A stretch of 47,795 nt of DNA from positions 1 through 47,795 of the IMG/VR virus record IMGVR_UViG_3300032893_000082; one strand, 5' to 3'. The notes below the pieces were generated by a model. That model was not told the DNA's origin and did no database searches. It saw nothing but the letters and a program-made list of their open reading frames with translations. How positions within the stretch are numbered: position 1 is the first letter of the stretch; the number at the start of each line of letters is the position of its first letter. Source of the DNA: a virus. Its lineage: Duplodnaviria; Caudoviricetes. Below are positions 25,151 through 46,337 of the stretch, piece by piece. Both the position numbers and the translations under genes were made by a program.

Positions 25151-25528
25151 TCAATCCTCTACTGCGTTCGCTAGTTCTTCTTGATACCATTTACGCACCT
25201 TTTCGTGATCCAGGTGCCAAATCCACAATTGAATCCTGTTTCCTGATCTTGGATTTACCTCTATTGGGGTAGCATACAAACAAGCATCACCGAAGAGTTG
25301 GCGAATCCCATCTGCCATTTTTACTCCTCTCTTCTCCTCCCCATCCACTACATCAGAGAAAATAACGAAAGCAGCGGGCCGAGGATTGGCTTTGTGATAA
25401 AGCGCAGTAGCTACTGCGAATATATTCTTAGTTGCTGTCGTTTTTGGTAAGTGGTGCGCTTCTAGGACACCGCAAGAAACGAAAGACTTGTCGAATCTCA
25501 TCTGTTTCGAATTAATATACTCACCCAT
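25151..25528 (-). CDS. Uncharacterised protein, C/D/N-motif family paralogue A
   Basis: AGAGGTGA SD; KSFVSCG...FVIFSD...VNPRSGNRIQLWIW. Confidence 0.75.
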   Translation of the reverse strand: MGEYINSKQMRFDKSFVSCGVLEAHHLPKTTATKNIFAVATALYHKANPRPAAFVIFSDVVDGEEKRGVKMADGIRQLFGDACLYATPIEVNPRSGNRIQLWIWHLDHEKVRKWYQEELANAVED

Positions 25529-25542
25529 AAATCACCTCTTTT

Positions 25543-25905
25543 ATGTCTGAACTACTTGAACTACAATTTAAATTCGCGAAACTAGTGCCTAGGCTTATTG
25601 ATCAAGCCTACGCTCTAGGACTCTCCGTAACTCTCGGTGAAATCTATCGTACACCTCAACAAGCTCTATATAATGAGAGAGCAGGGGCAGGCATTGCACA
25701 CTCTCTGCATACCCTTCGCCTAGCAATAGACCTACAACTTTTCCGAAATGGTCAATATTTAACGAGCACAGAAGATTATTTGCCTCTGGGAGAGTTTTGG
25801 GAAGCGCTGGGGAAGCAGGAGGGACTACTTCTGTGTTGGGGTGGTCGGTTCGAGTCACGACCAGATGGTAACCATTTTTCGCTGAGTTATCAGGGCGTTC
25901 GGTAG
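25543..25905 (+). CDS. Endolysin, M15-family peptidase
   Basis: GEIYRTPQQ, SLHTLRLAIDL, WGGRF...DGNHFS Zn-peptidase motifs. Confidence 0.9.
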   Translation: MSELLELQFKFAKLVPRLIDQAYALGLSVTLGEIYRTPQQALYNERAGAGIAHSLHTLRLAIDLQLFRNGQYLTSTEDYLPLGEFWEALGKQEGLLLCWGGRFESRPDGNHFSLSYQGVR

Positions 25906-25996
25906 ATATTTCGAGATTTTGATATTGGTGCCCCGGTAAGTCTAGTCTGTAAATAGAGGGGCCTGACTTAAACCAAAGTTCCGCTTCAATCTTCAT
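25595..25996 (-). CDS. Hypothetical protein overlapping the endolysin antisense
   Basis: ATG overlaps upstream TGA (ATGA); GGAG upstream; fills the gap in the - operon. Confidence 0.55.
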   Translation of the reverse strand: MKIEAELWFKSGPSIYRLDLPGHQYQNLEISTERPDNSAKNGYHLVVTRTDHPNTEVVPPASPALPKTLPEANNLLCSLNIDHFGKVVGLLLGEGYAESVQCLPLLSHYIELVEVYDRFHRELRRVLERRLDQ

Positions 25997-28665: not shown

Positions 28666-29196
28666 TTAACCATCCGCACCAGCAGAAGTAATCCATTCGT
28701 CAGGTATCCTCTCGCCTACGGCCCATTTAAACCCGTGCTTAGTAGCCCAATCGGAGTACCTCATCTTTTTCTTAGAGGTACACCAATTATCTCTTTGGAA
28801 CAAGAATCTCAGGTCGAGGTCAGGATTAGATTTGCGAACTGCTTCCATTCGCGCTCTATTTTCCGCAGTAAACTTCCCTTTAAGCTCGATGAACCTTTCG
28901 CCACTACCTCCAACTTCAACTCGAAGATCGGGTGTGTAAAATCGCTGCTGTGCGCAGCCAACTCTAGATCCACAAATCCGGCAGTAACTTTTGCGGATTT
29001 CTTTTTCGTATTTGATTTTTTCGGCTTCATATTCGTACTTTATTCCTCGTTGTTCAAGATCTTGGATAACCCTATCTTCAAAGTGCGAGGCGTGGTCCGG
29101 TCTTCCTCCCCGGTACCCCCACACCCTTGGCACTCTACCCCGTCTGGGTATCCTTCCCCTCTGCACTTTGGGCAGATCCTTCTGCTTTCTTGCCAA
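28666..29196 (-). CDS. Endonuclease I / Holliday junction resolvase (T7 gp3-like)
   Basis: SHFE...YEYE...YTPD...IELKG...DLRFLFQ...YSDWA...IPDEW; start uncertain. Confidence 0.85.
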   Translation of the reverse strand: MARKQKDLPKVQRGRIPRRGRVPRVWGYRGGRPDHASHFEDRVIQDLEQRGIKYEYEAEKIKYEKEIRKSYCRICGSRVGCAQQRFYTPDLRVEVGGSGERFIELKGKFTAENRARMEAVRKSNPDLDLRFLFQRDNWCTSKKKMRYSDWATKHGFKWAVGERIPDEWITSAGADG

Positions 29197-30085
29197 TCGT
29201 CCGATCCCCTTGTTCTTCTAGTTTTGGTGTCCACAATTTTTCGTCACTTTTCTGTCTAAGTCTGACTAATCGAGCTGTTTCTAACGCTACCTCTTCGGCG
29301 TTTTTATCTTTGTACGGACATCCTTCGATTTTCTTGGATTCCTCGTATTTCTTGACAATCTTGGGCCACATGGCTTCGTCAGATAAGCTATGGCACTGCG
29401 ATAAAAATCGTTTAGCACGCTTCTCTCCAAGTTCCCAGCACCCTCCGATATTGTCTCCGGGGTCCCCCGACAAGACCTGTTGCCAAAAATTGAGCTTGGC
29501 TTCATCCTCTGTAACAAAGTACGTTTTCTCCTCGACCCAATTGTAGTGTTCACCGGGGATCTGATCTAGGTCTTTGTCAATTCCGACAATAATTGGCTCG
29601 ATGCCTTTTTCATCGCAGCCTCGAGCAAACCAGGATATTTGGTCATCAGCTTCTTCATTACGAGTAATGATAGCGCCGTAAGCAGTTGTGAGGTACTCTC
29701 GTAGATCACCGTAATAAACAGGGCGAGAGAGACCATCTCTGTTACCTTTATACCTTTTGAGTGTAGCCACCACATCCCGAAAATTGCCAACACTAGGGCT
29801 AAGATATACAAACTTAATCGACCACCGGACGTTATCATACGCTTTCCTTATCATGCTATTGAGGACACCTATAGCATCCTCCAGGGTTCCTATTTCCTTA
29901 CGCATCCACAGGGTATCTCCTTCTTGGAGATCACCTATCTGGCCTTTTTTATCGAATTTGGTAAACGTAGGGTTGCCGTTCGCATCTCTCCTTTCTAATA
30001 GATATCTAGTCTTCTCTACCGCGAACGCTGCGCGGTAGAGGAAACTATCACCATCGATCAGAGCGCAACGCTCTTTTTTACTCAC
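29135..30085 (-). CDS. 5'-3' exonuclease (T7 gp6-like)
   Basis: LIDGD, NFR, YKGNR, EADD, DKDLDQIPG, GDPGDNIGG. Confidence 0.92.
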   Translation of the reverse strand: MSKKERCALIDGDSFLYRAAFAVEKTRYLLERRDANGNPTFTKFDKKGQIGDLQEGDTLWMRKEIGTLEDAIGVLNSMIRKAYDNVRWSIKFVYLSPSVGNFRDVVATLKRYKGNRDGLSRPVYYGDLREYLTTAYGAIITRNEEADDQISWFARGCDEKGIEPIIVGIDKDLDQIPGEHYNWVEEKTYFVTEDEAKLNFWQQVLSGDPGDNIGGCWELGEKRAKRFLSQCHSLSDEAMWPKIVKKYEESKKIEGCPYKDKNAEEVALETARLVRLRQKSDEKLWTPKLEEQGDRTIGKKAEGSAQSAEGKDTQTG

Positions 30086-30342
30086 TGAACAATCTCCGGA
30101 CCAAAGTCGGGCAGATCCCTTACAACGTCTTCATCCTTGTTCGGATTCTTCTCCCACTCGTCGAGCATGATCAAAAACTTACGAGCGTTGGCGAGAATAC
30201 TGGTGGACATCTCAGCTACGTCAAACTTCTTATTGATCACTGCGTAACAGATAAGCTCTACACCAGGCACATCAGCCACCCACAATTCGTAAGTATCGTT
30301 CTCATCAACCAATTGAATCTTTTCAATTATCTTTGTCACCAA
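30082..30342 (-). CDS. Hypothetical protein
   Basis: AGGAGGT SD; ATGA coupling to the exonuclease. Confidence 0.7.
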   Translation of the reverse strand: MVTKIIEKIQLVDENDTYELWVADVPGVELICYAVINKKFDVAEMSTSILANARKFLIMLDEWEKNPNKDEDVVRDLPDFGPEIVQ

Positions 30343-30362
30343 GCACCTCCTGTGCTTTTATC

Positions 30363-30977
30363 TTAAGACCAGGGGATCTCTTTGTCCGTACCCAAGCCCA
30401 CTCCACCACTAGCATCGGTGTTGTCATCAAAAACGTCACCGCCGCCCCCACCGCTAACCAGCGAAACCCTGTTAAAATATAGTTCAGTAAGGTCGTCAAT
30501 TTTACCCATGACCACAGCGACGTTATCGGCTTTAGCAGAATCTGCCAACTTAAGTACCCGTTCTCGCAGAAGCAGATCCACCACGCTAATAGCAGCGTTA
30601 CGAGCAGACTGATATTGGATACGAATATCGTTTTCCTTGCGATATTTGTCGTTCTCCACATCTCGTAACGCTCTTTCATCCCAATACTTTCCAGATTCTC
30701 CCTTCTTAGCATCCTGTCGTACCACCCCTGCGTTAGATCGCGCAGGCATATCTGCGCTTGATTCCGAACGATCAATATGCTTAATACTACCAGGATCCAC
30801 ATTATAGCGACCGTTTTCTTCCTTATAGTCGAATTCTATGTAATCGTTTTTATTCAATCCGTGGTCCGTAGTTCCCGTCCCGAAGAACTTGTCTTCCGTC
30901 CCGATTCGAAATGAATATAACGTTTTCTTTCCCCACCTGTTGTTGCCTGCGTATGTAACATATCCTTTTGCTTGCAT
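30363..30977 (-). CDS. Putative single-stranded DNA-binding protein
   Basis: OB-like N-terminus, IQYQSARNAA, acidic tail ending EIPWS; follows the polymerase. Confidence 0.65.
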   Translation of the reverse strand: MQAKGYVTYAGNNRWGKKTLYSFRIGTEDKFFGTGTTDHGLNKNDYIEFDYKEENGRYNVDPGSIKHIDRSESSADMPARSNAGVVRQDAKKGESGKYWDERALRDVENDKYRKENDIRIQYQSARNAAISVVDLLLRERVLKLADSAKADNVAVVMGKIDDLTELYFNRVSLVSGGGGGDVFDDNTDASGGVGLGTDKEIPWS

Positions 30978-30988
30978 CCGTGCCTTCC

Positions 30989-32890
30989 TTAGTTGAGTGT
31001 AATGGCTGTTGGCTTATCTGAGGTAAACTTGAATCGTTTTTCTGGTTCGTATTTTGCTTCTTCTCCTTCTCCCCAGTGTTCCCCCTCTTTGTATCCCAGA
31101 CCAAGAGGAGTGCTAAAATCATAATCATAAAGCTTGGCCAATACCTCGTAAATATCATTAGTATAGGATTGTACCATAAGCTCCCTAAATTTACAAGACT
31201 CTTCCACAGGAATGTCGCCGATACCGCTATCGTGTACAGTATTGCATATGTAACCACTCCAACCGCGCATACCATGCCAAACAAGCACAAGGCTAAGCAA
31301 AGCAATATCAGCACCAGCAAAGCTGCTGATCGGATAATTGAAAATCTTCGTGGTATTCGTAATGTAGCCACTTTCTAGCATCCTCGTGTCCGGCCAGTAG
31401 AAAATAAGTCCTGACGGTATTCTAAGCTGTCCAGTTTCGAGCACACTGTAAACCCATCGTAATTGACCGTTATACAAGCCTGAATATCGTGCTCGGAAAG
31501 CTTCGTAATATCGCACGAGCCTCGGAGGACCCGATTTTCCCCCATATATGGGCTTAAACGTATGCGGTTTGGACTCCTGTCTAGTAAAACCTGTAACGGA
31601 GGATGTAAGCGTGTGCACGTCAGCCCTAGCAAGAACATCCGCAAGTCCGACTGGGTCCCCTGTAAGGTCAACACCAGTTCTAAATTCGAGTTGCGGGCAG
31701 TCACCCTCAGCGATTCGGCAACCTTTACGCCCACTGCAAAATAGCTTTTTGAGCGATCTTGATTGGTTTTGAAGCTGGAGACCCCACTTTCCTCCTGTGC
31801 TGGATAGTCGGTGATTCTGAGTAACCGCTTGATTGAATTGAGCAAAGAAATGGCCATTATCTTTCTCGCATATCTCTTTCATTGTCTCCAAATTGGAGAC
31901 CATCTTCTTCAGCGGTGCTAGGGTTCCCCAAAGCTTCAGGAACTTTCTTTGGTCACTAGTGGTACCTCGAAGTTTCTCGATTGTGGGGTTGGACGCACTG
32001 CGGTTTCCGGAGTCAGTACGGACAACTTTGCCTCGATAGTCTTTAAGTTCCGCAAATCCCAATTTGTCGTAAAGTAGTCCGGCAACTTGTTTTGGCGAAT
32101 CCCAATTAACTCCTCCACAAAATTCTTGCAGTGCTCTGTCACATTGCTGGAACTCTTGAATTGCATTTGTATGCGCAGTAAGTACTCTGGGGGCGTCCAG
32201 ATGACATCCTCTGGCTTCGATGTCGGCGAGCATCGGTGTTGCAAGACATCGCCCGTACAGTACTTTATCCAACCCCAACCCAATAATTCGTCGTTGCTGT
32301 TGAAGAAAAAGATCTTCAGTCCTTTTAACATCAACTCCACAGTATTCTCTGAGATCCATCTGGGGAATACGTGATGGACAGACTCCACTGTCAATAAGCG
32401 CTGACACATAACGCATCTTGCCTGGAATACGGTACCTTTTGAGAGTTGCGTCAAGGGAGAATCCTCCGTCTGGTTTAGTATTACCTGCTAGGCAGTACTC
32501 CCCTAGCATAGGGTCATAGATTAGTAAGTCTCGTAGCTCCACTCCACATCGACGTAGCCATCCGGCTTCGAACTTGGCATGGAAGGCGACAACGAAGCTT
32601 GCTCTCTCAATATCGTCAAGAAGTCTTTGTTGCTCAAACTCCGTACCAAACTGACTGCGTACCCCCCTACCGTCGGTGTAAGACGGATGTTCTTTACCGA
32701 CCAACCAGCAAGCAAGAATAATCGAATTGTTTCGGTTAACTGGAGATCCGTGGTCAATATTTGTCGTTTCAAAATCAAGGACAAGGTAGTCGCTCCTTAA
32801 GTAGACTGACGGGTCTAGGTCCAACGGGCGGGATTTTCTAATGCCCGCGCTAAGATTTTCGTTCTCCATCTCCCTTCCTTGGTATCTCAA
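30989..32890 (-). CDS. polA: Family A DNA polymerase with 3'-5' exonuclease
   Basis: LDFET (exo I), HRLSS, DCPQLEFR (motif A), RQESKPHTF...YG (motif B), TVHDS (motif C); start may be ATG at 32869. Confidence 0.95.
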   Translation of the reverse strand: MRYQGREMENENLSAGIRKSRPLDLDPSVYLRSDYLVLDFETTNIDHGSPVNRNNSIILACWLVGKEHPSYTDGRGVRSQFGTEFEQQRLLDDIERASFVVAFHAKFEAGWLRRCGVELRDLLIYDPMLGEYCLAGNTKPDGGFSLDATLKRYRIPGKMRYVSALIDSGVCPSRIPQMDLREYCGVDVKRTEDLFLQQQRRIIGLGLDKVLYGRCLATPMLADIEARGCHLDAPRVLTAHTNAIQEFQQCDRALQEFCGGVNWDSPKQVAGLLYDKLGFAELKDYRGKVVRTDSGNRSASNPTIEKLRGTTSDQRKFLKLWGTLAPLKKMVSNLETMKEICEKDNGHFFAQFNQAVTQNHRLSSTGGKWGLQLQNQSRSLKKLFCSGRKGCRIAEGDCPQLEFRTGVDLTGDPVGLADVLARADVHTLTSSVTGFTRQESKPHTFKPIYGGKSGPPRLVRYYEAFRARYSGLYNGQLRWVYSVLETGQLRIPSGLIFYWPDTRMLESGYITNTTKIFNYPISSFAGADIALLSLVLVWHGMRGWSGYICNTVHDSGIGDIPVEESCKFRELMVQSYTNDIYEVLAKLYDYDFSTPLGLGYKEGEHWGEGEEAKYEPEKRFKFTSDKPTAITLN

Positions 32891-34939: not shown

Positions 34940-35117
34940 GATCGCTTTCTACCTCTTCCCATATCTCAGGTTGGTACTCTCGTTCGAAGTACTGCTCGAA
35001 ATTTAGTTCTTCTTCTGCTGCGATATCAGAGATATCGTCGGATTCCGACAGAACGTCTTGCTGCAATTCTAGTTCGCGGAGTAGCTCCAGACTTACGTGC
35101 GGCGGTTTTTTGTCCAT
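34893..35117 (-). CDS. Small highly acidic protein
   Basis: TAAGG SD; 25 of 74 residues are D/E. Confidence 0.6.
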   Translation of the reverse strand: MDKKPPHVSLELLRELELQQDVLSESDDISDIAAEEELNFEQYFEREYQPEIWEEVESDHDSSSDNPAESEDQS

Positions 35118-35448
35118 AGTCCCTTACCTTATTTATTTTTGTTTTTCTTTTCTTTTCCGTGAACCAATGGTACAGGGTAACGTGGTGTCCCCCAGACTTG
35201 GAGTTCACACCAAGCTTGAATTTATCACACCTGTACCCAGAACGCAAGATCAACTTGTATAGGCGCTCACCGTGCCCATACTCATCAGCATCAGAAAACT
35301 CGATGATCAGCGGCAGTTCGTCCCCTCCCTGTACCTTAGCTCGCGCTAGAATATCTTCCAGGTCAGTTTTGCTGAACCCTGTGTTATGCAGACCTCCTAC
35401 GCAGTACACAGCACAGCAGTGCTGACTCTTATAAACTTGCATTTTCAC
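35026..35448 (-). CDS. Uncharacterised protein, C/D/N-motif family paralogue B
   Basis: AGGAG upstream; KSQHCCA...IIEFSD...VNSKSGGHHVTLYHW. Confidence 0.7.
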   Translation of the reverse strand: MKMQVYKSQHCCAVYCVGGLHNTGFSKTDLEDILARAKVQGGDELPLIIEFSDADEYGHGERLYKLILRSGYRCDKFKLGVNSKSGGHHVTLYHWFTEKKRKTKINKVRDYGQKTAARKSGATPRTRIAARRSVGIRRYL

Positions 35449-35513
35449 TCCTAAGTAATTGTATCAGTTAAGAATAGTTACCCTAACATGTTAGAGAATC
35501 GTACTTGTCAATA

Positions 35514-35542
35514 TTGACATGAAAATACAATATTAGTATAAT
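35514..35542 (+). promoter_or_regulatory. Perfect-consensus sigma70 promoter, antisense to the ligase operon
   Basis: TTGACA(35514-35519)-17 bp-TATAAT(35537-35542). Confidence 0.8.
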
Positions 35543-35640
35543 ACCGACTTCGGTCGGTTAGACAGAAGTCGGAACTACCTCCCTCAGTCGGGTACACGGC
35601 CCGTCCCACAAGGAGAGGGCCGTACTATCGCCGCTCCCTA

Positions 35641-36198
35641 TCAAGCGGCGATTATACTATCTACTATTTTCTTATCTTCTACTACGAGCAACTCTTTAGT
35701 AGTTGCGAGTGCTTTCTTTACCGGGGCGCCAACCTTGACGCCCGGTTTAAACACCACCACGTGAGGTGGTGTTAATACGTACACACGGCCCGGATGACTA
35801 CCCACAGGGCCGTGCCACAGATTATCTACTAGATCGGTGCGCCACACGGTGCACCCCAGTTCTTTCTGGTGTAAGTACAAGTACAGAAATAGTCCCTTGA
35901 GACTTCGTAGTGCTATTGATTCACCGATATTTTGGTAAATATCGTACATTTTCTGATTATCGTGAAACACAAAGAAAGCTAAGTTTCTATCGTATCCTCC
36001 GCTGGCGTATTTAGGTCCGGGATCACGAAGCCATTCCAAGAATTCTAATACAGATTCCTTAATCTCTTTTGCAGATATTTTTTTCGAATCGAAATTATTA
36101 TAACAAAGCCCACCGTCTGATAGGATTTGCATGTGATCAATTGTGCCCATTGCACAATTGTAGGACTTGATGTGCGCTCGAATTTGGTACTTAGCCAT
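35641..36198 (-). CDS. Uncharacterised protein, C/D/N-motif family paralogue C
   Basis: KSYNCA...FFVFHD...KGL...DNLWHG...RVYVL. Confidence 0.75.
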   Translation of the reverse strand: MAKYQIRAHIKSYNCAMGTIDHMQILSDGGLCYNNFDSKKISAKEIKESVLEFLEWLRDPGPKYASGGYDRNLAFFVFHDNQKMYDIYQNIGESIALRSLKGLFLYLYLHQKELGCTVWRTDLVDNLWHGPVGSHPGRVYVLTPPHVVVFKPGVKVGAPVKKALATTKELLVVEDKKIVDSIIAA

Positions 36199-36199
36199 T

Positions 36200-36805
36200 T
36201 TAGGCGATTCCTAGGGTCGTAAGTTCGTGTTTAAGGATTGGTGAATGGGCATAGTTTTTCGCGATTGCGGAAAGGGACACTTTCATCCCCGGAGTAACGG
36301 AAGCCTTGTCGAAACAGATATCCTTAGCTATAGAGGGCAACACCAAAGTCCATATTCGACTAGGCTTGGAGGGTCCATAGTACCGATTCGGTAGAATCGG
36401 ACTCTTGAGTACCACTACCCCGAACTTGGGCTCCGTCTCGAACACCTCTATCAGTCCTTTCCAGTGATTGTACCAAGTAAAGGACTTGTTCATGTGAATT
36501 GCATCACAGTAAATAAGTACGCCAGGAGGGTACACGCCGCTATCCAAGGGAAAGAAGGGGCACCCGTCCTTAAGGGCCTTGAACGTGGCCCTCTGATTAA
36601 GATCTTCCAAATAATTGAAGATGATCGCGTCTCTGATCTTAGGATCTTCCAGTTCCTTAGCGATTACCCCCGACCCAACATCTACGGGGTCGTCCCCGTT
36701 GTTCACGTGAAGCTGCAACCGCCCTACGGTTTTGTTGCCGCAATTGTACTCTCCATAGAGAGCACTAAGCCATACGTTGTATTTGCCTACTTTATGTTTA
36801 TTCAC
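36200..36805 (-). CDS. Uncharacterised protein, C/D/N-motif family paralogue D
   Basis: EYNCG...VLIYCD...KGL...PNRYYG...RIWTL; coupled to the ATP-grasp gene. Confidence 0.75.
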   Translation of the reverse strand: MNKHKVGKYNVWLSALYGEYNCGNKTVGRLQLHVNNGDDPVDVGSGVIAKELEDPKIRDAIIFNYLEDLNQRATFKALKDGCPFFPLDSGVYPPGVLIYCDAIHMNKSFTWYNHWKGLIEVFETEPKFGVVVLKSPILPNRYYGPSKPSRIWTLVLPSIAKDICFDKASVTPGMKVSLSAIAKNYAHSPILKHELTTLGIA

Positions 36806-37593
36806 AATTTATTCCTTGTAATCAGTTCGCCCAGATGTGTAATATAAAACGCCAAACATTGGCCTTCCAGGCCCGGTGCTGTGTTTATCTCCCCCACCAG
36901 CATCTTCTTGTCGTTAAACATTATATCCACCGCTCCATACGCCAACCCGCAAGCGTGCATAGCTTTCGCTGCGAGCGCAACAGCCGCCAAGTTTGTGCTA
37001 ACGTTACGCTTGAAGATCCACCCCTTATCGTAGGTTCGGATATAAGTCTCCGGCGTGCCCTCCAAATTGAACTCCTCCCACCGACCCTCGAGAACCCGGC
37101 CCTTCTCAAGATAAAGGGAGCGGTATTTTCCATCAGCTCCCTGGATGCAGTGCACACGGCACTCAGTCTTTTTTGGAAAGTACTTAGTGTAGAGATGGAT
37201 GTCTTCCCTGGTGATCTGTCCCCCTTTCTTGAAGAGTTCGAGACCTTGTGCAGAGTGGGCGTGTAGATTGAAGTGCCCGACCACCGAAGACGTAGTGAGC
37301 CATTCCAAAGCTTCTCCACGCTTAAGTGTGTATTCAAGGGTCGGAATCTCTTTCTCATGCAACCTCTTTAAACAATTAAGTTTATTGGCTGCCACAGCAA
37401 CAGCGGAACACGGATTAAGTATCTTAGGTCCGGCTCCTAGAACCTTGGTACACCCCCAATTGACAATTAATCCCACCTTGTTCTTTGCTTTGTCCATTTC
37501 CCACTCGGCAGGTGTACGTCGAATGAGATTCAAGTTCTGACACAGCCGTCGAGGCGTTCCGCCTCTCCACGGCGAAAGAAGTACTGTCCTCAT
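36802..37593 (-). CDS. ATP-grasp ligase (RimK-like)
   Basis: IVNWG, AANKL, ECRVH, YGAVDI, EINTAPGL. Confidence 0.9.
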   Translation of the reverse strand: MRTVLLSPWRGGTPRRLCQNLNLIRRTPAEWEMDKAKNKVGLIVNWGCTKVLGAGPKILNPCSAVAVAANKLNCLKRLHEKEIPTLEYTLKRGEALEWLTTSSVVGHFNLHAHSAQGLELFKKGGQITREDIHLYTKYFPKKTECRVHCIQGADGKYRSLYLEKGRVLEGRWEEFNLEGTPETYIRTYDKGWIFKRNVSTNLAAVALAAKAMHACGLAYGAVDIMFNDKKMLVGEINTAPGLEGQCLAFYITHLGELITRNKL

Positions 37594-39236
37594 GTTCCTA
37601 CCTTTTTCATGACTATTGGGTCATGAACACAGCATTCGCATATCATCTGATACTCTGCATCGAGTGGGTTATGATCCTCGGGGGGTAGCGGGAACTCCCA
37701 CCACTCCACTCGTCCGATGTCTTCGGCTGTGATCATTCCTTTACACCCGACACACCCTTTTGACGCCACCTCGCGCCACTCACGATACGTAATCTTTTGT
37801 CCTGCGGGGCCTGGGACTAGATCAGTAAGCGCCCTTTCTACCCGCAGATTATCCCCTCCTCGTCGTTCGGCTCCAGATCCAACGGGTGTCCCGTTGTTGG
37901 GTCCCACCCCCACGGAACTCCCTCCTCCTTCGGTCTTTCCCACACTGCTGGTCGTGCTAGACGAATGGGTAACAAGGGGAAGGGACCCCCTATCGAGAGT
38001 TTTACAACTCTCGCAAGCACAGACGTATGAGTGGCCGTTGGGCCGCTTCAAATACTTGTCTTTTTCCGCCAATCGTCGTTTCTGGTCTTGAATTTCCTTG
38101 GCAGCATCCGCTTCTTCTAATCTCACTTCGTAGAAAGCGTACTTCTGCCCGGTATCTGGATCAATCTCATCCCGTGTAAGGTTAATAATTCTGCACGGCA
38201 AAGAGTGAGCAATTAAGTGAGTCTTCTCGTTCCAATCCTTCCAGTGAAGCCCCACTATTCGAACCTTTGAGCCCTTTTCCATAGAGCGTGTGCCATAAGC
38301 GAACCCGTAGGCATGCTGCTCGAGAGTCTCATTCTCCCCGGTTCCGATAGGCTTGTAGAGATTGACTGCGCTCTTAGCGTCTCCTGGTACGCTAACCCAG
38401 ATACAGTCTCCTTTTCCAGGGAACTGCTTAGTGTAGTCTTTCCACCGTTGTTGACTGTTTCCGTAAAGCCCGCCGTTCTCGTTTTGATAACTTGCGGCGG
38501 GCAGGAATTTTTTTTCTTCGTACTTCGTCTTCATGGCTTTAAGAACTTTCTTAGTCAGATCCCACTGATACAAAGTTAAGGTGTCCAATTGCCAAAACTC
38601 GTTCACGTGGGGTATGTTATTCCGACGTAGGAGGCTTACCAGCATGTCCATTTCGGAAGCGAAGTAAAGTATCGTCTGCTCCTTGTTAAGGGCGTAATAA
38701 AGCTCTCGTTCGACATTACGAGCCATGTTAAGCATCTTGGTGCGAGTGTCGTACCAGATAAGAACGTACGCTCCTTCAATAGATTCCAGAGTAGCCAACG
38801 CCCCCTTTTCGAGTAGTGCGTGGGCAGCGTGCGCCGAATCCACTGGGTGAGTAAATCCCGGTGGAGTAAGTGTCAAATAATTCCTGATGTGTCCATTATG
38901 GATCATCAGTACAGAATCTCCAGCAGCATTGGTAAATCTGAACGGGTGGGCGTTTTTGGTAGATACCGTACCAATGGTTGCTGACCTGGTGTGCCCGAGT
39001 ACGGCACGTGAGGAGAAAAGGTTCTTTCCTACCCAATCCCATTCATCGGAGCACACAAAATTGGGCGCCGGAATATGGGACTTGGCAAGATCCGTATCGA
39101 ATTCCTTGTGGACAAGACCGACTCCTGTACCCCCCATGCCACGCAACGCGGACATGTAGAGTCCTTGGACCATGAAATTGTCGATCTTTGTAAAATAAGC
39201 ATCGTCTGCTCTAAATGCTCCAATTAACCCGCACAT
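37590..39236 (-). CDS. Class II glutamine amidotransferase with C-terminal extension
   Basis: N-terminal MCGL (Cys nucleophile), LRG, GHTRSAT, NAHPF, HNG, VDS, FASE. Confidence 0.92.
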   Translation of the reverse strand: MCGLIGAFRADDAYFTKIDNFMVQGLYMSALRGMGGTGVGLVHKEFDTDLAKSHIPAPNFVCSDEWDWVGKNLFSSRAVLGHTRSATIGTVSTKNAHPFRFTNAAGDSVLMIHNGHIRNYLTLTPPGFTHPVDSAHAAHALLEKGALATLESIEGAYVLIWYDTRTKMLNMARNVERELYYALNKEQTILYFASEMDMLVSLLRRNNIPHVNEFWQLDTLTLYQWDLTKKVLKAMKTKYEEKKFLPAASYQNENGGLYGNSQQRWKDYTKQFPGKGDCIWVSVPGDAKSAVNLYKPIGTGENETLEQHAYGFAYGTRSMEKGSKVRIVGLHWKDWNEKTHLIAHSLPCRIINLTRDEIDPDTGQKYAFYEVRLEEADAAKEIQDQKRRLAEKDKYLKRPNGHSYVCACESCKTLDRGSLPLVTHSSSTTSSVGKTEGGGSSVGVGPNNGTPVGSGAERRGGDNLRVERALTDLVPGPAGQKITYREWREVASKGCVGCKGMITAEDIGRVEWWEFPLPPEDHNPLDAEYQMICECCVHDPIVMKKVGT

Positions 39237-39252: not shown

Positions 39253-40209
39253 TTACGCGGCTACATATTGGTAAAGGGTTTCAAGTCCGTTCCAATAGTC
39301 CGCTTCTGAATTGCGAGACATGCGGACAGCATCTCTGTAGTGAGACTTGAAAACTTCGACTAAAAACTGTTCTGGTTTTTTATGGTTGCAGTAATCAATG
39401 ACCTTATCTGGAGTCATGGGGTGCTCTTGGCACCACTGCTTGATCCTCATAATTAGGTTGATCCACGTGATTATAGCATCACGTTGCATGGTTACACGGC
39501 CGTGCCTAAATTCTAGCGTGCCGAAATCTCCTAAAGAAAAACAGTTCAATCCAGCGTACTTATTAGCTTGTTTACCTATCTTAAACCCAGCCACTGCGCT
39601 CGAACTTTCTGGTACGTGGTATTTACGTATGCAATCCTTAAAAGCTTCGAAGTGCTGTGGGTGCTTGTACCACGGGATACAGTAATTGGATAGATGGCGA
39701 CCTCCTCCTACGTATTGATAAAGAAATGGCTCAACTACGCAATAAACAGCTCCGAACTGGTGTACATCGTCGGGGAACGTCGCATCTCGCATGTCTAAGT
39801 GAACGTGCAAAGAAGTACGATAAGATCCTTCAAAACCCAGGACACGAGCACAATCATCCATAGCGTCAATAGCTTTGAGTAATTTGGAGCCGCTATACGG
39901 AGCCTTAAAATTGAACTCCAATCCCTCCCCCCGCAGACTGTGGTCTACGTGGTGATTATAGTATTTACACACCTCCGTAATTACCGCCATGTGCGTAGTC
40001 CCTTGAAGTAGCGGGTTTGGTGCAACAGCCCCTGGGGGCAGTTCCGGGTTAACCGCCAAATTCAAATACGGATTGTCGTTTTTAGGGAATCGCTTCGTCT
40101 TTTCCCATTCGTACTCCAGTCCTATTGCGTTACGCGGAAGACAAAAGTCAGGTACGGGCTGCTCTTGAACTTGATCGTCAGCCGCATTTATTAGATTGCG
40201 TACTTTCAT
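39253..40209 (-). CDS. Putative amidoligase (Amidoligase_2-like)
   Basis: IGLEYE, DHSLR, GLE, LHVHLD, NYC, KYAGLN, GTLEFR. Confidence 0.88.
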   Translation of the reverse strand: MKVRNLINAADDQVQEQPVPDFCLPRNAIGLEYEWEKTKRFPKNDNPYLNLAVNPELPPGAVAPNPLLQGTTHMAVITEVCKYYNHHVDHSLRGEGLEFNFKAPYSGSKLLKAIDAMDDCARVLGFEGSYRTSLHVHLDMRDATFPDDVHQFGAVYCVVEPFLYQYVGGGRHLSNYCIPWYKHPQHFEAFKDCIRKYHVPESSSAVAGFKIGKQANKYAGLNCFSLGDFGTLEFRHGRVTMQRDAIITWINLIMRIKQWCQEHPMTPDKVIDYCNHKKPEQFLVEVFKSHYRDAVRMSRNSEADYWNGLETLYQYVAA

Positions 40210-41111
40210 ATTGCGTCATTAAACCCCATATTATGCAATTCGTAGTGCGGCATAAGATTTTGTGCCCCAGGGTAGCCCCCTCGATACGTAAGTATTGTGC
40301 CGTGGTGCGGACTCCCCGGCCAAACATACAGCACGGAATACCAACGAGAGTTCAACCAATACCCAGGATGGTACCCCTTTATGTAATGAGGATTGGCTGC
40401 CTGCGGAATGATGGCAGAGGCGTCTTTAGCGTCTTTTTTCTCCTTTTGCTCTGAGATTAGTACATTTTCCGGCAGTACTCCAAGTTTTTGAAGTTTGTAC
40501 TTGAACGGTGCTGCCCAAGGGTACAGCTCCACAACGCTCTCCACAACGCCCGGTGCCGTAACAAATTTCCCAATCGGTTCACTATGAAAATAGAGTAGAT
40601 TCGCCACACGATCTATTAAGAAATTCTCTCTCGTCCAGCACGCCAGTGGTCCTTCTCGCCACACGTCTACGAGAGCAGGCTTTACGTGGCGCATCCCATA
40701 CAATTCGCAAAAGGCTTGGCTTGCCGTCTCTTGTACTGTCCTGGCTGCTGGAGGAACATCTCCAAAGAATTTGACATCGTTAAATCTCCAAGGAAACGAT
40801 TTCCTCAAGTTTTTCTGCAACTTGTGTTTCCACAAAGCCGCACCGTGCTTATAATTGAACATGATGGGCTGCATGAGAATGATATCTAACGAAGTCCACC
40901 ATTCCTTGAGAGAAATGGTCTTATCTTTGAATTCTTTCTCACGAGTCAAGTATTGGCCAGATATTTTGTCCCCATCGCCCAGCCCTGATACCACGAACAA
41001 TCGTCGTTTTGTCGGGCTTATCCGCCACACCATTGCGGTGCTAGCGAAATAGTGATTGAAATCTTGAGGAGTAACATCCTTGTAGGCTTCCCCACTAATT
41101 GTTGTTATCAT
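40206..41111 (-). CDS. Hypothetical protein inside the ligase operon
   Basis: 301 aa; ATGA-coupled to the amidoligase. Confidence 0.75.
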   Translation of the reverse strand: MITTISGEAYKDVTPQDFNHYFASTAMVWRISPTKRRLFVVSGLGDGDKISGQYLTREKEFKDKTISLKEWWTSLDIILMQPIMFNYKHGAALWKHKLQKNLRKSFPWRFNDVKFFGDVPPAARTVQETASQAFCELYGMRHVKPALVDVWREGPLACWTRENFLIDRVANLLYFHSEPIGKFVTAPGVVESVVELYPWAAPFKYKLQKLGVLPENVLISEQKEKKDAKDASAIIPQAANPHYIKGYHPGYWLNSRWYSVLYVWPGSPHHGTILTYRGGYPGAQNLMPHYELHNMGFNDAI

Positions 41112-41117
41112 GGTTGC

Positions 41118-42074
41118 TTACTTCCCTAAGGAAAGGTTTCCCGCTTTAATGGCTGCTCTGTTAGCACTCAACTGCTTGCGTTCACTCACCCAACGAGCAA
41201 GAGCATCTGTACACACACTGTAGTGATTCCGATAATTATAAAATGACTCAGGCCCAGCCAGAGCAGTTATTTCAGAAGCAACCTGATCGATGTTAGAGGT
41301 CTTCAAGAACATTTTTATCGCGTCGTTCACACGAGCGCCATGTTGGTCATAATCGAAACAAGTAGCTAAACGATCCATAGTCCAATCGAAAGATGAGATG
41401 ATACCTTTATGATACTCCTTTGCGTCCGGAGAAAGTTTACTAATGCGAGCGGCATTACACCAAGAGTTATCAGGGGATCGGTGTTCAATTCCGTACTCGG
41501 TTTCCCTATAAAGTCCAGGGTGGCCGTAAAACTTCCAGCGGCTCTTATCTGCATAGTATCTACTCCAAGGTAGTACAAAGAGTAGATCTATAAATTTCAC
41601 CAAATTGATTTTCTCCAACCCTTCGGGCCATGGGTTGATACCTACGTGCACGTGCCCCCCAGCAAAGCGCATGTTCTGGAATTTGCTGATCGAGGGAGCT
41701 AACCTAAGTCCGTACGCAAACATGTCAGGGGAACATCCGATATTCATAGCTTCGCTGTATTTACTCAATTCTTCTTGAGGATAGACAGCAGAACTATTCG
41801 GAAGGAATTCGTATTCTTGAAATTTATTCAAGAATACGAGTTGTAAATTCAACAACTTCTTCAAGGTGTCTTTAAGAGATGAGGAAGGAGTAACGTTGAA
41901 CTCAACTGTAACCCCATCTTCAAGAAACCCTCCGTCTGGACTCAAAAACATGGGGGCTCTTTTTTCGCCCCCAAATTTGTGACACGCCACCACCGCCTGG
42001 TGTGTCTTTTTATCGGCTACTATAAATTCAGGATCAGCACCGATAGTTATCTTGTATCTCTTATTATTAGACAT
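41118..42074 (-). CDS. COOH-NH2 ligase type 2 (phiEco32-like)
   Basis: TIGADPEF, EDGVTVEFN, GCSPD, RFAGGHVHVG, YG-x-x-G-x-YR, YGIEHRSPDN. Confidence 0.9.
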   Translation of the reverse strand: MSNNKRYKITIGADPEFIVADKKTHQAVVACHKFGGEKRAPMFLSPDGGFLEDGVTVEFNVTPSSSLKDTLKKLLNLQLVFLNKFQEYEFLPNSSAVYPQEELSKYSEAMNIGCSPDMFAYGLRLAPSISKFQNMRFAGGHVHVGINPWPEGLEKINLVKFIDLLFVLPWSRYYADKSRWKFYGHPGLYRETEYGIEHRSPDNSWCNAARISKLSPDAKEYHKGIISSFDWTMDRLATCFDYDQHGARVNDAIKMFLKTSNIDQVASEITALAGPESFYNYRNHYSVCTDALARWVSERKQLSANRAAIKAGNLSLGK

Positions 42075-45014: not shown

Positions 45015-46337
45015 CTACTCGTTTTGAGCTTTTGGCTCGTTAGACTCGACGTCCTTTTCTGCTTCAATGTGCTGTTTCATGTACGCTTTTTCCTCTACAT
45101 ACCGTTCCTTGCCTTCGCTAATCATCAACTGGCGTACATCCGCGTCCGCCGCATCCCAATCGGCTTGATCCAGCCAATCAGGCTTTACCACGGATGGCGC
45201 ATCCGAGCCAGAAGACTCAACGCCCGCAGATTCGATTGCAGCTTGCGGTCTACCCTCAGACTCGGCAATCCCCACACTCGGCCGTGATGACGTTTCCGCA
45301 ATCTTGGCCTTAGTGGCTTCCTGCTTCGCCTTGATGGCTTCACGCAATTTCGCTGCACACTCGGAAAGTATGGCATTGACTACTCCTTGCTCAAGGTCGG
45401 CCGCGGCGTCGTGCGCAGCCAGTATTACAGCGTTGAGGCATTTTTGCGTAGAGTCCGCAAGGTTGCCTCTCTGCCGCGTTCCGCTGGCCATTCCTTGGTT
45501 ATTCTGTTCACCATTCTGCCCGGTTTGCGCTGCTGCTGCTTTTCCTTTCTCCCGCTCGATTCGCTTTTTCTCGGACTCGTGCTTGGCTATGCACAATTCC
45601 GCTAACCGAGCGTCCGCAGTGAACAATCTCCATCCTTTCTTTTCATCCGCGTAGCGCTTACTCCACAAGTTCATGAATCCATCGGCTACGAACATTTGTG
45701 GTTCGCCTTGGTGTTTGGCTTGAAAGTTATACCAGTCCTGTACACCGTTAATGTACGTTTCCGCGTTGTTCATGTACTTGAGTAGCCGACTCTTGGTCAT
45801 TATGTATGAGCCGGCGCCTGTACCGCCTTGTATCTTGGCTATATCGCTCAAAGTGCGGTATGGCTTGATAGCCATAGGCGCAGGACCACGTCCTTCTTCA
45901 TACAGCTTTAGCTCGTGCTTGTACTGTTCCTCCTGAGCGTCCCGCAGATTTTTCAAGGCCCGACCCTCGGCTACCTTGAACGTCCCCTCTACGTAATCCT
46001 CATCCTCACACTGCCGCATGAACAAAAACACCTCGCGGGTTAGCTCTGCTGCAGCCCTAATAGACTTGAGGATTATTGCCTTGCCTGTCTCAGCTACCGC
46101 GTCATCAAACTTGATATCTGAGGCATTTACACCTCGCAATACCACGCCACTGGCTTGTAGCTGGGCAGCGTGCGCGGCCGCCTGCGCGAATTCGGCTTTC
46201 CGTTTCGCTTCCATGGCTTCTCGATCCTTGACCTTGGCCTCAAGTTCGTCTCCAGCGAGATTTGGAAAATCGCGCTTGACAGACTCCTCAACTGACGGAG
46301 CAACGTTTACCATTGTATTTTCAACTGTAGCGTTCAT
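45015..46337 (-). CDS. Large early protein of unknown function
   Basis: TAGGAG SD; Ala/Glu/Lys-rich and helical; own terminator. Confidence 0.85.
   Translation of the reverse strand: MNATVENTMVNVAPSVEESVKRDFPNLAGDELEAKVKDREAMEAKRKAEFAQAAAHAAQLQASGVVLRGVNASDIKFDDAVAETGKAIILKSIRAAAELTREVFLFMRQCEDEDYVEGTFKVAEGRALKNLRDAQEEQYKHELKLYEEGRGPAPMAIKPYRTLSDIAKIQGGTGAGSYIMTKSRLLKYMNNAETYINGVQDWYNFQAKHQGEPQMFVADGFMNLWSKRYADEKKGWRLFTADARLAELCIAKHESEKKRIEREKGKAAAAQTGQNGEQNNQGMASGTRQRGNLADSTQKCLNAVILAAHDAAADLEQGVVNAILSECAAKLREAIKAKQEATKAKIAETSSRPSVGIAESEGRPQAAIESAGVESSGSDAPSVVKPDWLDQADWDAADADVRQLMISEGKERYVEEKAYMKQHIEAEKDVESNEPKAQNE

Follow-up and report, generated by a model that had tools for sequence, protein, structure and literature searches.

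Cysteine-bearing proteins with a predicted GNAT back-half fold as a tentative accessory to the amidoligase cassette of a podophage-type genome

What four small, unannotated genes contribute to a phage cassette of amide-forming ligases is the question raised by the IMG/VR record IMGVR_UViG_3300032893_000082, whose 47,795 nucleotides were analyzed as a whole and are called the window here. The window is a podophage-type genome of ~48 kb with a phiEco32/LUZ24-type cassette of two amide ligases, a glutamine amidotransferase, and an ATP-grasp ligase. This cassette is common to phiEco32-, LUZ24-, PA11-, and crAss-like phages, its role is still hypothetical in the portions of the literature accessible to us, and the accessible text of one study hypothesizes that it alters peptidoglycan peptides and blocks superinfection (PMC5498523). 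The four genes lie on the minus strand and are named by their lower coordinate: 36200 (36200..36805, 201 amino acids [aa]), which overlaps the ATP-grasp stop by 4 nucleotides (nt); 35641 (35641..36198, 185 aa), its tandem second copy in the same YNC subfamily; 35026 (35026..35448, 140 aa, HCCA subfamily); and 25151 (25151..25528, 125 aa, VSCG subfamily), ~11 kb from the ATP-grasp gene. A first-pass annotation had described them as four paralogues with a truncated GNAT-like fold, an invariant and possibly catalytic Cys/Asp/Asn set, and the role of a missing effector arm of the cassette. We tentatively read them as the back half of a GNAT fold without the acetyl-coenzyme A (CoA) loop, which may serve the cassette as an optional, cysteine-dependent acyl carrier or transferase; two of the four genes are family members by sequence, and the other two likely are.

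All motifs on which the four genes had been grouped were found in the translations of 36200, 35641, 35026, and 25151, in the order described. None of the four had a Pfam or PHROGs match at E ≤ 0.01, and a plain MAFFT alignment of the four proteins did not bring the Asp and Asn into register. Iterative hidden Markov models (HMMs) were run over the open reading frames (ORFs) from 90 sequences and, as control, over reversed decoys; they joined 25151 with 35026 at E = 3e-4 and then at 3e-36, and 36200 with 35641 at E = 6e-14, the best decoy reaching an E value of 0.016 or worse; 25151 and 35026 belong to different subfamilies of one 60-member subclade (support 0.94), and hhalign of the profiles A2 and A3 gave P = 85.9 and E = 5e-6. 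No HMM connected the 25151/35026 pair with the 36200/35641 pair. In hhalign, the 36200/35641 profile scored above all column-block shuffles in three of five comparisons, namely against A6 (E = 4e-4, 0/60 shuffles, with all four motifs in register), A2 (E = 1.5e-3, 0/60), and a Ser/Thr-Asp subclade (E = 1.7e-3, 0/60, with just 18 columns aligned), and failed the shuffle test against A3 (18/60) and a broad 231-row profile (15/40). The link between the pairs is thus weaker than that within each pair.

The two pairs could also be unrelated and their shared motifs convergent, which would agree with the missing HMM link, with hhalign probabilities of just 15-37% between the pairs, and with the two failed shuffle tests. 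However, the AlphaFold models, which were made for 25151 and 36200, have an identical order of elements; the two share 28 of 50 PDB and 12 of 50 viral fold-search targets; C, D, and N are invariant at equivalent elements in the YNC subfamily; and family members verified by sequence fill the same slot after the ATP-grasp gene in the loci L008, L023, and L083. Convergence thus appears unlikely, and the hhalign results, the predicted element order, and the shared targets make homology of the two pairs likely.

The model of 25151 (pLDDT 91.6) runs strand-strand-helix-strand-helix-strand-strand-helix, and for both modeled proteins the predicted core corresponds to the β3-β7 mixed sheet of GNAT enzymes with α3 and α4. 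In the VIA fold search, ~40 of the 50 rows returned for 25151 were GNAT-fold enzymes, as assigned in part by title (Z 5.4-7.0), EctA (6sk1) reaching Z 7.0 with a root mean square deviation (rmsd) of 2.9 over 98 aligned residues; the targets that recurred with 36200 did so at Z 3.5-4.8. Foldseek gave no PDB match at E ≤ 0.001, the best sequence match to a protein of solved structure had E = 0.46, and the ESM Atlas offered no usable family, DUF2652 scoring 0.84, below the bar. The top match of 25151 in both VIA and Foldseek was Trypanosoma Alba1 (Z 7.7, rmsd 3.1, 98 aligned), within one Z unit of the best GNAT. Since Alba proteins and the GNAT back half share one β-α-β-α-β-β topology, structure alone is not decisive, and sequence continuity has to decide. 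That the family might consist of Alba-like nucleic-acid-binding proteins, GNAT-like in topology only, would fit this top match and the basic, Arg/Lys-rich tail of 35026 (isoelectric point [pI] 9.9). It is nevertheless very unlikely given the sequence continuity to GNATs with a CoA loop described below, the alignment of 36200 over ~100-113 residues to GNATs vs ~70-77 to Alba, the neutral pI of 25151 (7.0), and the lack of a PF01918 match in the Pfam scan of the four.

Motif A, the R/Q-x-x-G-x-G loop that holds the CoA pyrophosphate, is absent from all four window proteins. A loose, untrimmed iteration (E < 0.02) strayed into DNA polymerase A and was replaced by a core-trimmed one. The core profile built from 35026 and 25151 reached proteins with motif A at E < 0.01 (best decoy, 0.099), such as L007:17233, L067:1588, L005:8237, and L022:4949, in which the CoA loop directly follows the Cys motif; one of these four lies above the Pfam GNAT cut-off and one has a match below it. 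Acetyltransf_1 was matched above the cut-off by L022:4949 (E = 1.5e-6) and P0138 (E = 4.5e-7), and at E ≤ 0.01 by 13 of the 60 top representatives. A regular expression found motif A in 47 of 231 aligned members, 39 of which sit in one 46-member group (support 0.75). Descent from CoA-binding GNATs is thus indicated by profile for 25151 and 35026 and indirectly for 36200 and 35641, and the truncated GNAT-like fold of the first-pass annotation was borne out by the VIA matches of 25151 and 36200 together with this bridge to Pfam-recognized relatives.

The predicted β3-β4-α3-β5-α4-β6-β7 core is the one seen in GNAT acetyltransferases (PF00583; EctA, the phosphinothricin-type 1vhs and 1yvo, and NatA), and relatives within the family likewise retain motif A together with an Asn resembling that of motif B. 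Unlike those enzymes, the window proteins have neither motif A nor the N-terminal β1-α1-α2 lid, and they carry a Cys at the β3-β4 turn and an N-P-x-[ST]-G-N hairpin. Acetyltransf_CG (PF14542), a small GNAT that binds CoA and whose conserved Cys, located after β5, has been proposed to carry the acyl group as an intermediate, was matched weakly by one of 60 relatives; in contrast, the Cys of the window family precedes β4, and motif A is gone.

With E ≤ 0.001 as the cut-off, a 46-row family profile matched 4,599 clusters (50% identity), of which the best 150 were listed. The cultured members are LUZ24 gp12 and tf_13, both in phrog_8299, and phi14:2 gp025; the fold search, in which they were identified through organism and length, pointed to them first, and sequence searches followed. 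PHROG 8299, a narrow, unnamed, and functionally unannotated subfamily without a direct match from the window proteins, was matched by the family profile (LUZ24 gp12, E = 0.008; tf_13, E = 1.5e-4) and also by the 25151 model, here again through agreement of organism and length; the genomes concerned carry the same cassette, as do EP335, O4, CW02, and phi14:2. A search of genomes retrieved none of five cultured phages (0/5), although two of them, LUZ24 and tf, are matched by the local HMM, and its negatives are therefore weak. In cellular genomes, where the 25151 and motif-A subfamilies were searched, there was no match for the former and one for the latter; this one fell within a 439-aa protein encoded among housekeeping genes, and we judged it spurious. 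Nothing describing the family was found in the portions of the literature accessible to us. Overall, a real GNAT offshoot tied to the cassette, and probably undescribed, emerges from the analysis. Further proteins with a divergent Cys motif scored close to the threshold or beneath it (L005 18237-19118, L118 43-624, L132 4659-5174, and L067 3070-4243), one of them directly after an ATP-grasp gene, which are possible bridges to the YNC subfamily. In the region L005 6747-8578, a gene whose motif looks like that of nicotinamide phosphoribosyltransferase shares an overlap with one of the motif-A members.

L010 has orthologues of all three genes downstream of the ATP-grasp gene, whereas in L011 and L012 a single YNC copy accompanies the 35026 orthologue and 35641 has no orthologue; 35641 is therefore likely a lineage-specific duplicate. 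The 35026 orthologues of L010-L012 lie just upstream of primase, and the protein search gave two homologues of 35026. Searching with 36200 alone retrieved no viral locus. Judged by sequence comparison, 25151 is an old or imported copy and no recent duplicate, since its 74 homologues (45-81% identity on other contigs) include proteins of phages with quite different gene content.

Is the family tied to the cassette? A ligase was present in 15 of 17 family-anchored viral records, comprising 6/6 records of the 25151 subfamily and 9/11 of the motif-A subfamily, three of which share an identical-looking locus; in the latter, complete records scored 4/4, and the ligase was missed in two records with a completeness of 19% and 29%. 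A held-out panel of 28 of the 91 polymerase-anchored loci (contigs ≥23 kb, outside the training set) had the family in 6/9 ligase-positive vs 0/19 ligase-negative loci (Fisher p = 2e-4) and, among complete records, in 4/6 vs 0/10 (p = 0.008). A more sensitive local search added G050 and a weak match in G049 (E = 0.33), and gave no family match at E < 10 in the 10 complete ligase-negative genomes. The ligase label needs at least four changes on the polymerase tree, two rows of which (L181 and L184) are partly out-of-frame translations, and the co-occurrence spans LUZ24-like phages, crAss-like phi14:2, and a 452-kb jumbo record. In that record (G079, L247), two tandem COOH-NH2 ligase genes were seen at 29061-31463, near three family members. 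The proposed linkage to ligase clusters was therefore upheld. The notion of an obligatory cassette part was not: among 80 ATP-grasp loci (two exact duplicates dropped), 30 had a member, and the family is thus an accessory. A whole-record search of 40 of these loci found it in 16/40 and, among complete records, in 10/16, with incomplete detection. The 47 members, one to three per locus as compared with four in the window, were all on the cassette strand, five of them directly after the ATP-grasp gene.

Conservation separates the Cys from the other two residues. In 25151 and its homologues, S58, D59, and G96 occur in 75/75, N92 in 74/75, and C19 in 73/75, and in the 28 members of the YNC subfamily (36200/35641), Y20, N21, C22, D101, N140, P148, and P157 are invariant. 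Among 149 representatives of the whole family, the Cys is kept in 148, the hairpin Asn in 147, and the Asp in 44; among 62 non-redundant locus members, the counts are 59, 51, and 16. The near-invariant Cys of the first-pass annotation therefore stood, but the Asp, although present throughout the two window subfamilies with enough members for a count (75/75 and 28/28), is not conserved family-wide, which makes the Cys/Asp/Asn triad doubtful. The predicted topology places the Cys at the β3-β4 turn and the Asp and Asn at the opposite end of the parallel β4/β5 pair, and a triad within a monomer is therefore unlikely. The N-P-x-[ST]-G-N hairpin that the Asn opens is a common structural turn, and the Asn is probably a hairpin cap. 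In RimI and Naa50, the general base is at the end of β5; Ser58/Asp59 of 25151 take that position, and by this analogy the Asp may matter in the 25151 subclade. Three of the four window proteins have a single Cys at the motif, which argues against a required Cys pair.

An optional cysteine-dependent acyl carrier or transferase is tentatively favored because (i) the thiol alone among the residues is kept across both branches, (ii) one Cys suffices in three window proteins, and (iii) carboxylate-activating enzymes accompany the family in the records examined. The ancestor would have been a CoA-using acyltransferase, as in the motif-A branch. In the loop-less copies, the single Cys would bind an acyl group, e.g., a ligase-made glutamyl residue or short peptide, through a thioester bond and hand it on to an amine, and copies that have diverged would use different acceptors; the target guessed for the cassette in the literature would be the peptidoglycan peptide, modified against superinfection. 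The fuller version, in which CoA-free GNAT-derived transacylases with one copy per target form the output stage of a widespread phage peptide-tagging or cell-wall-remodeling system, is rather doubtful at present. Mom of phage Mu (PDB 8bv8), a weak fold match to 36200 (Z 3.8), is a precedent for a GNAT from a phage that draws its acyl group from a donor other than CoA; Mom uses Gly-tRNA, relies on R111/S124, and acts on DNA, and the accessible text mentions no role for a Cys (PMC13219725).

Several observations weigh against the acyl carrier or transferase. The low Asp counts, the failed shuffle tests, and the Alba1 match given above are among them, and Z values <8 may reflect a common arrangement of elements. 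No motif-A copy of the family was present in the window, and for no member of the family was an activity or structure found. The family profile was trained on cassette phages and ATP-grasp loci, the 149 representatives were ranked by the same profile, so that their conservation is inflated, and nine of the 10 complete ligase-negative genomes fall into one weakly supported polymerase clade, so that the p values overstate independence. Furthermore, 50 of the 80 cassette loci had no member within 10 kb, and the 47 members are mostly not beside the ligases, 32 being upstream among early genes and 15 downstream.

That placement would suit stand-alone early effectors of host takeover, for which the Rac acetyltransferase of phiKMV-like phages is a precedent and which would share lineage and lifestyle with the cassette rather than chemistry. 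LUZ24 gp12 and tf_13 lie ~2.6-2.8 kb before the ligase and precede a separate annotated promoter; in the window, 25151 is remote from the cassette, and 35026 follows a spacer that in L010 contains a sense promoter of its own. Such a role nonetheless appears quite unlikely in view of the breadth of co-occurrence, the repeated changes of the ligase label, and the empty complete ligase-negative genomes. A further alternative, doubtful though deserving attention, is that the proteins are catalytically dead GNAT-derived adaptors, which would attach to the ligases or to targets in the host and determine specificity, the Cys being structural or redox-sensitive. The loss of motif A, the extreme divergence, the varying copy number, and the coupled translation of 36200 with the ATP-grasp gene all agree with adaptors, as do fold matches to the ornithine decarboxylase antizyme and the ICL2/Rv1916 domain, which are non-enzymatic uses of the GNAT fold. 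However, a Cys kept in 148/149 while nearly all else varies would seem to exceed the usual needs of a surface adaptor.

Around the four genes, the plus strand holds the virion module (terminase, P22/SU10-like portal, and capsid), and the minus strand holds the replication module (polymerase A, helicase, and primase) and the cassette. The latter comprises a phiEco32-like COOH-NH2 ligase type 2 (41118..42074; phrog_3815; PF14395, E = 3.5e-5), an amidoligase (39253..40209; PF12224), a class II glutamine amidotransferase with an N-terminal Cys and a C-terminal extension (37590..39236; PHROGs/Pfam), and a RimK-like ATP-grasp ligase (36802..37593; phrog_2599), all on the minus strand. An unannotated minus-strand gene between the two ligases (40206..41111) is kept in L010-L012, and similarly placed unannotated genes were seen in LUZ24 (gp17), tf, and O4. 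The window thus resembles the phiEco32/LUZ24/RIO-1 cassette in its ligase, amidoligase, amidotransferase, and ATP-grasp genes; unlike that cassette, it had no gamma-glutamyl cyclotransferase (GGCT) detectable among the 58 ORFs scanned with Pfam and PHROGs. The accessible text of PMC5498523 lists no GNAT-like part. We considered 25151 as a GGCT and rejected it: its tblastn match to the EP335 GGCT (E = 8e-3) spans residues 40-110 only, the EP335 protein has YGSLR and 25151 does not, and neither the YG[ST]L motif nor the GGCT profile was found in 25151. The family and GGCT coexist in L005, L007, L009, LUZ24, tf, and phi14:2, and therefore the family is no simple replacement of GGCT.

While 36200 and 35641 directly abut the ATP-grasp gene as first described, 35026 lies behind a 192-bp structured spacer (35449..35640). 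This spacer contains hairpins and a perfect (12/12) sigma-70 consensus (35514-35542, plus strand), of which the window has no second; the site is antisense to the cassette and points into the hairpins and the 3′ end of 35641; an antisense 12/12 site is also present in L010 and L011 and not in L012. Rfam returned nothing credible for the spacer region, and 35514-35660 on the plus strand is a candidate small or antisense RNA. With the hairpins and the antisense site before 35026, the three downstream genes may therefore not form one transcription unit.

Elsewhere in the window, the starts of 25151 and of a plus-strand M15 peptidase endolysin (25543-25905) are 14 nt apart; the endolysin gene overlaps the minus-strand ORF 25595 by ~310 nt (region 25151-25996). 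This overlap recurs in L011 and points to either overlapping opposite transcripts or a shadow ORF. An unannotated, helical-looking early protein of 440 aa (45015-46337, minus strand) is kept in L010-L012, and AT-rich low-complexity repeats occupy the contig end (47460-47766).

With thousands of clusters, found almost only in cassette-bearing records, the family offers a new handle on the product of the cassette and its destination. In cultured phages, its role is testable by one point mutation in LUZ24 gp12 or phi14:2 gp025. If the acyl relay proves true, a GNAT that traded CoA for a cysteine would represent new enzymology.
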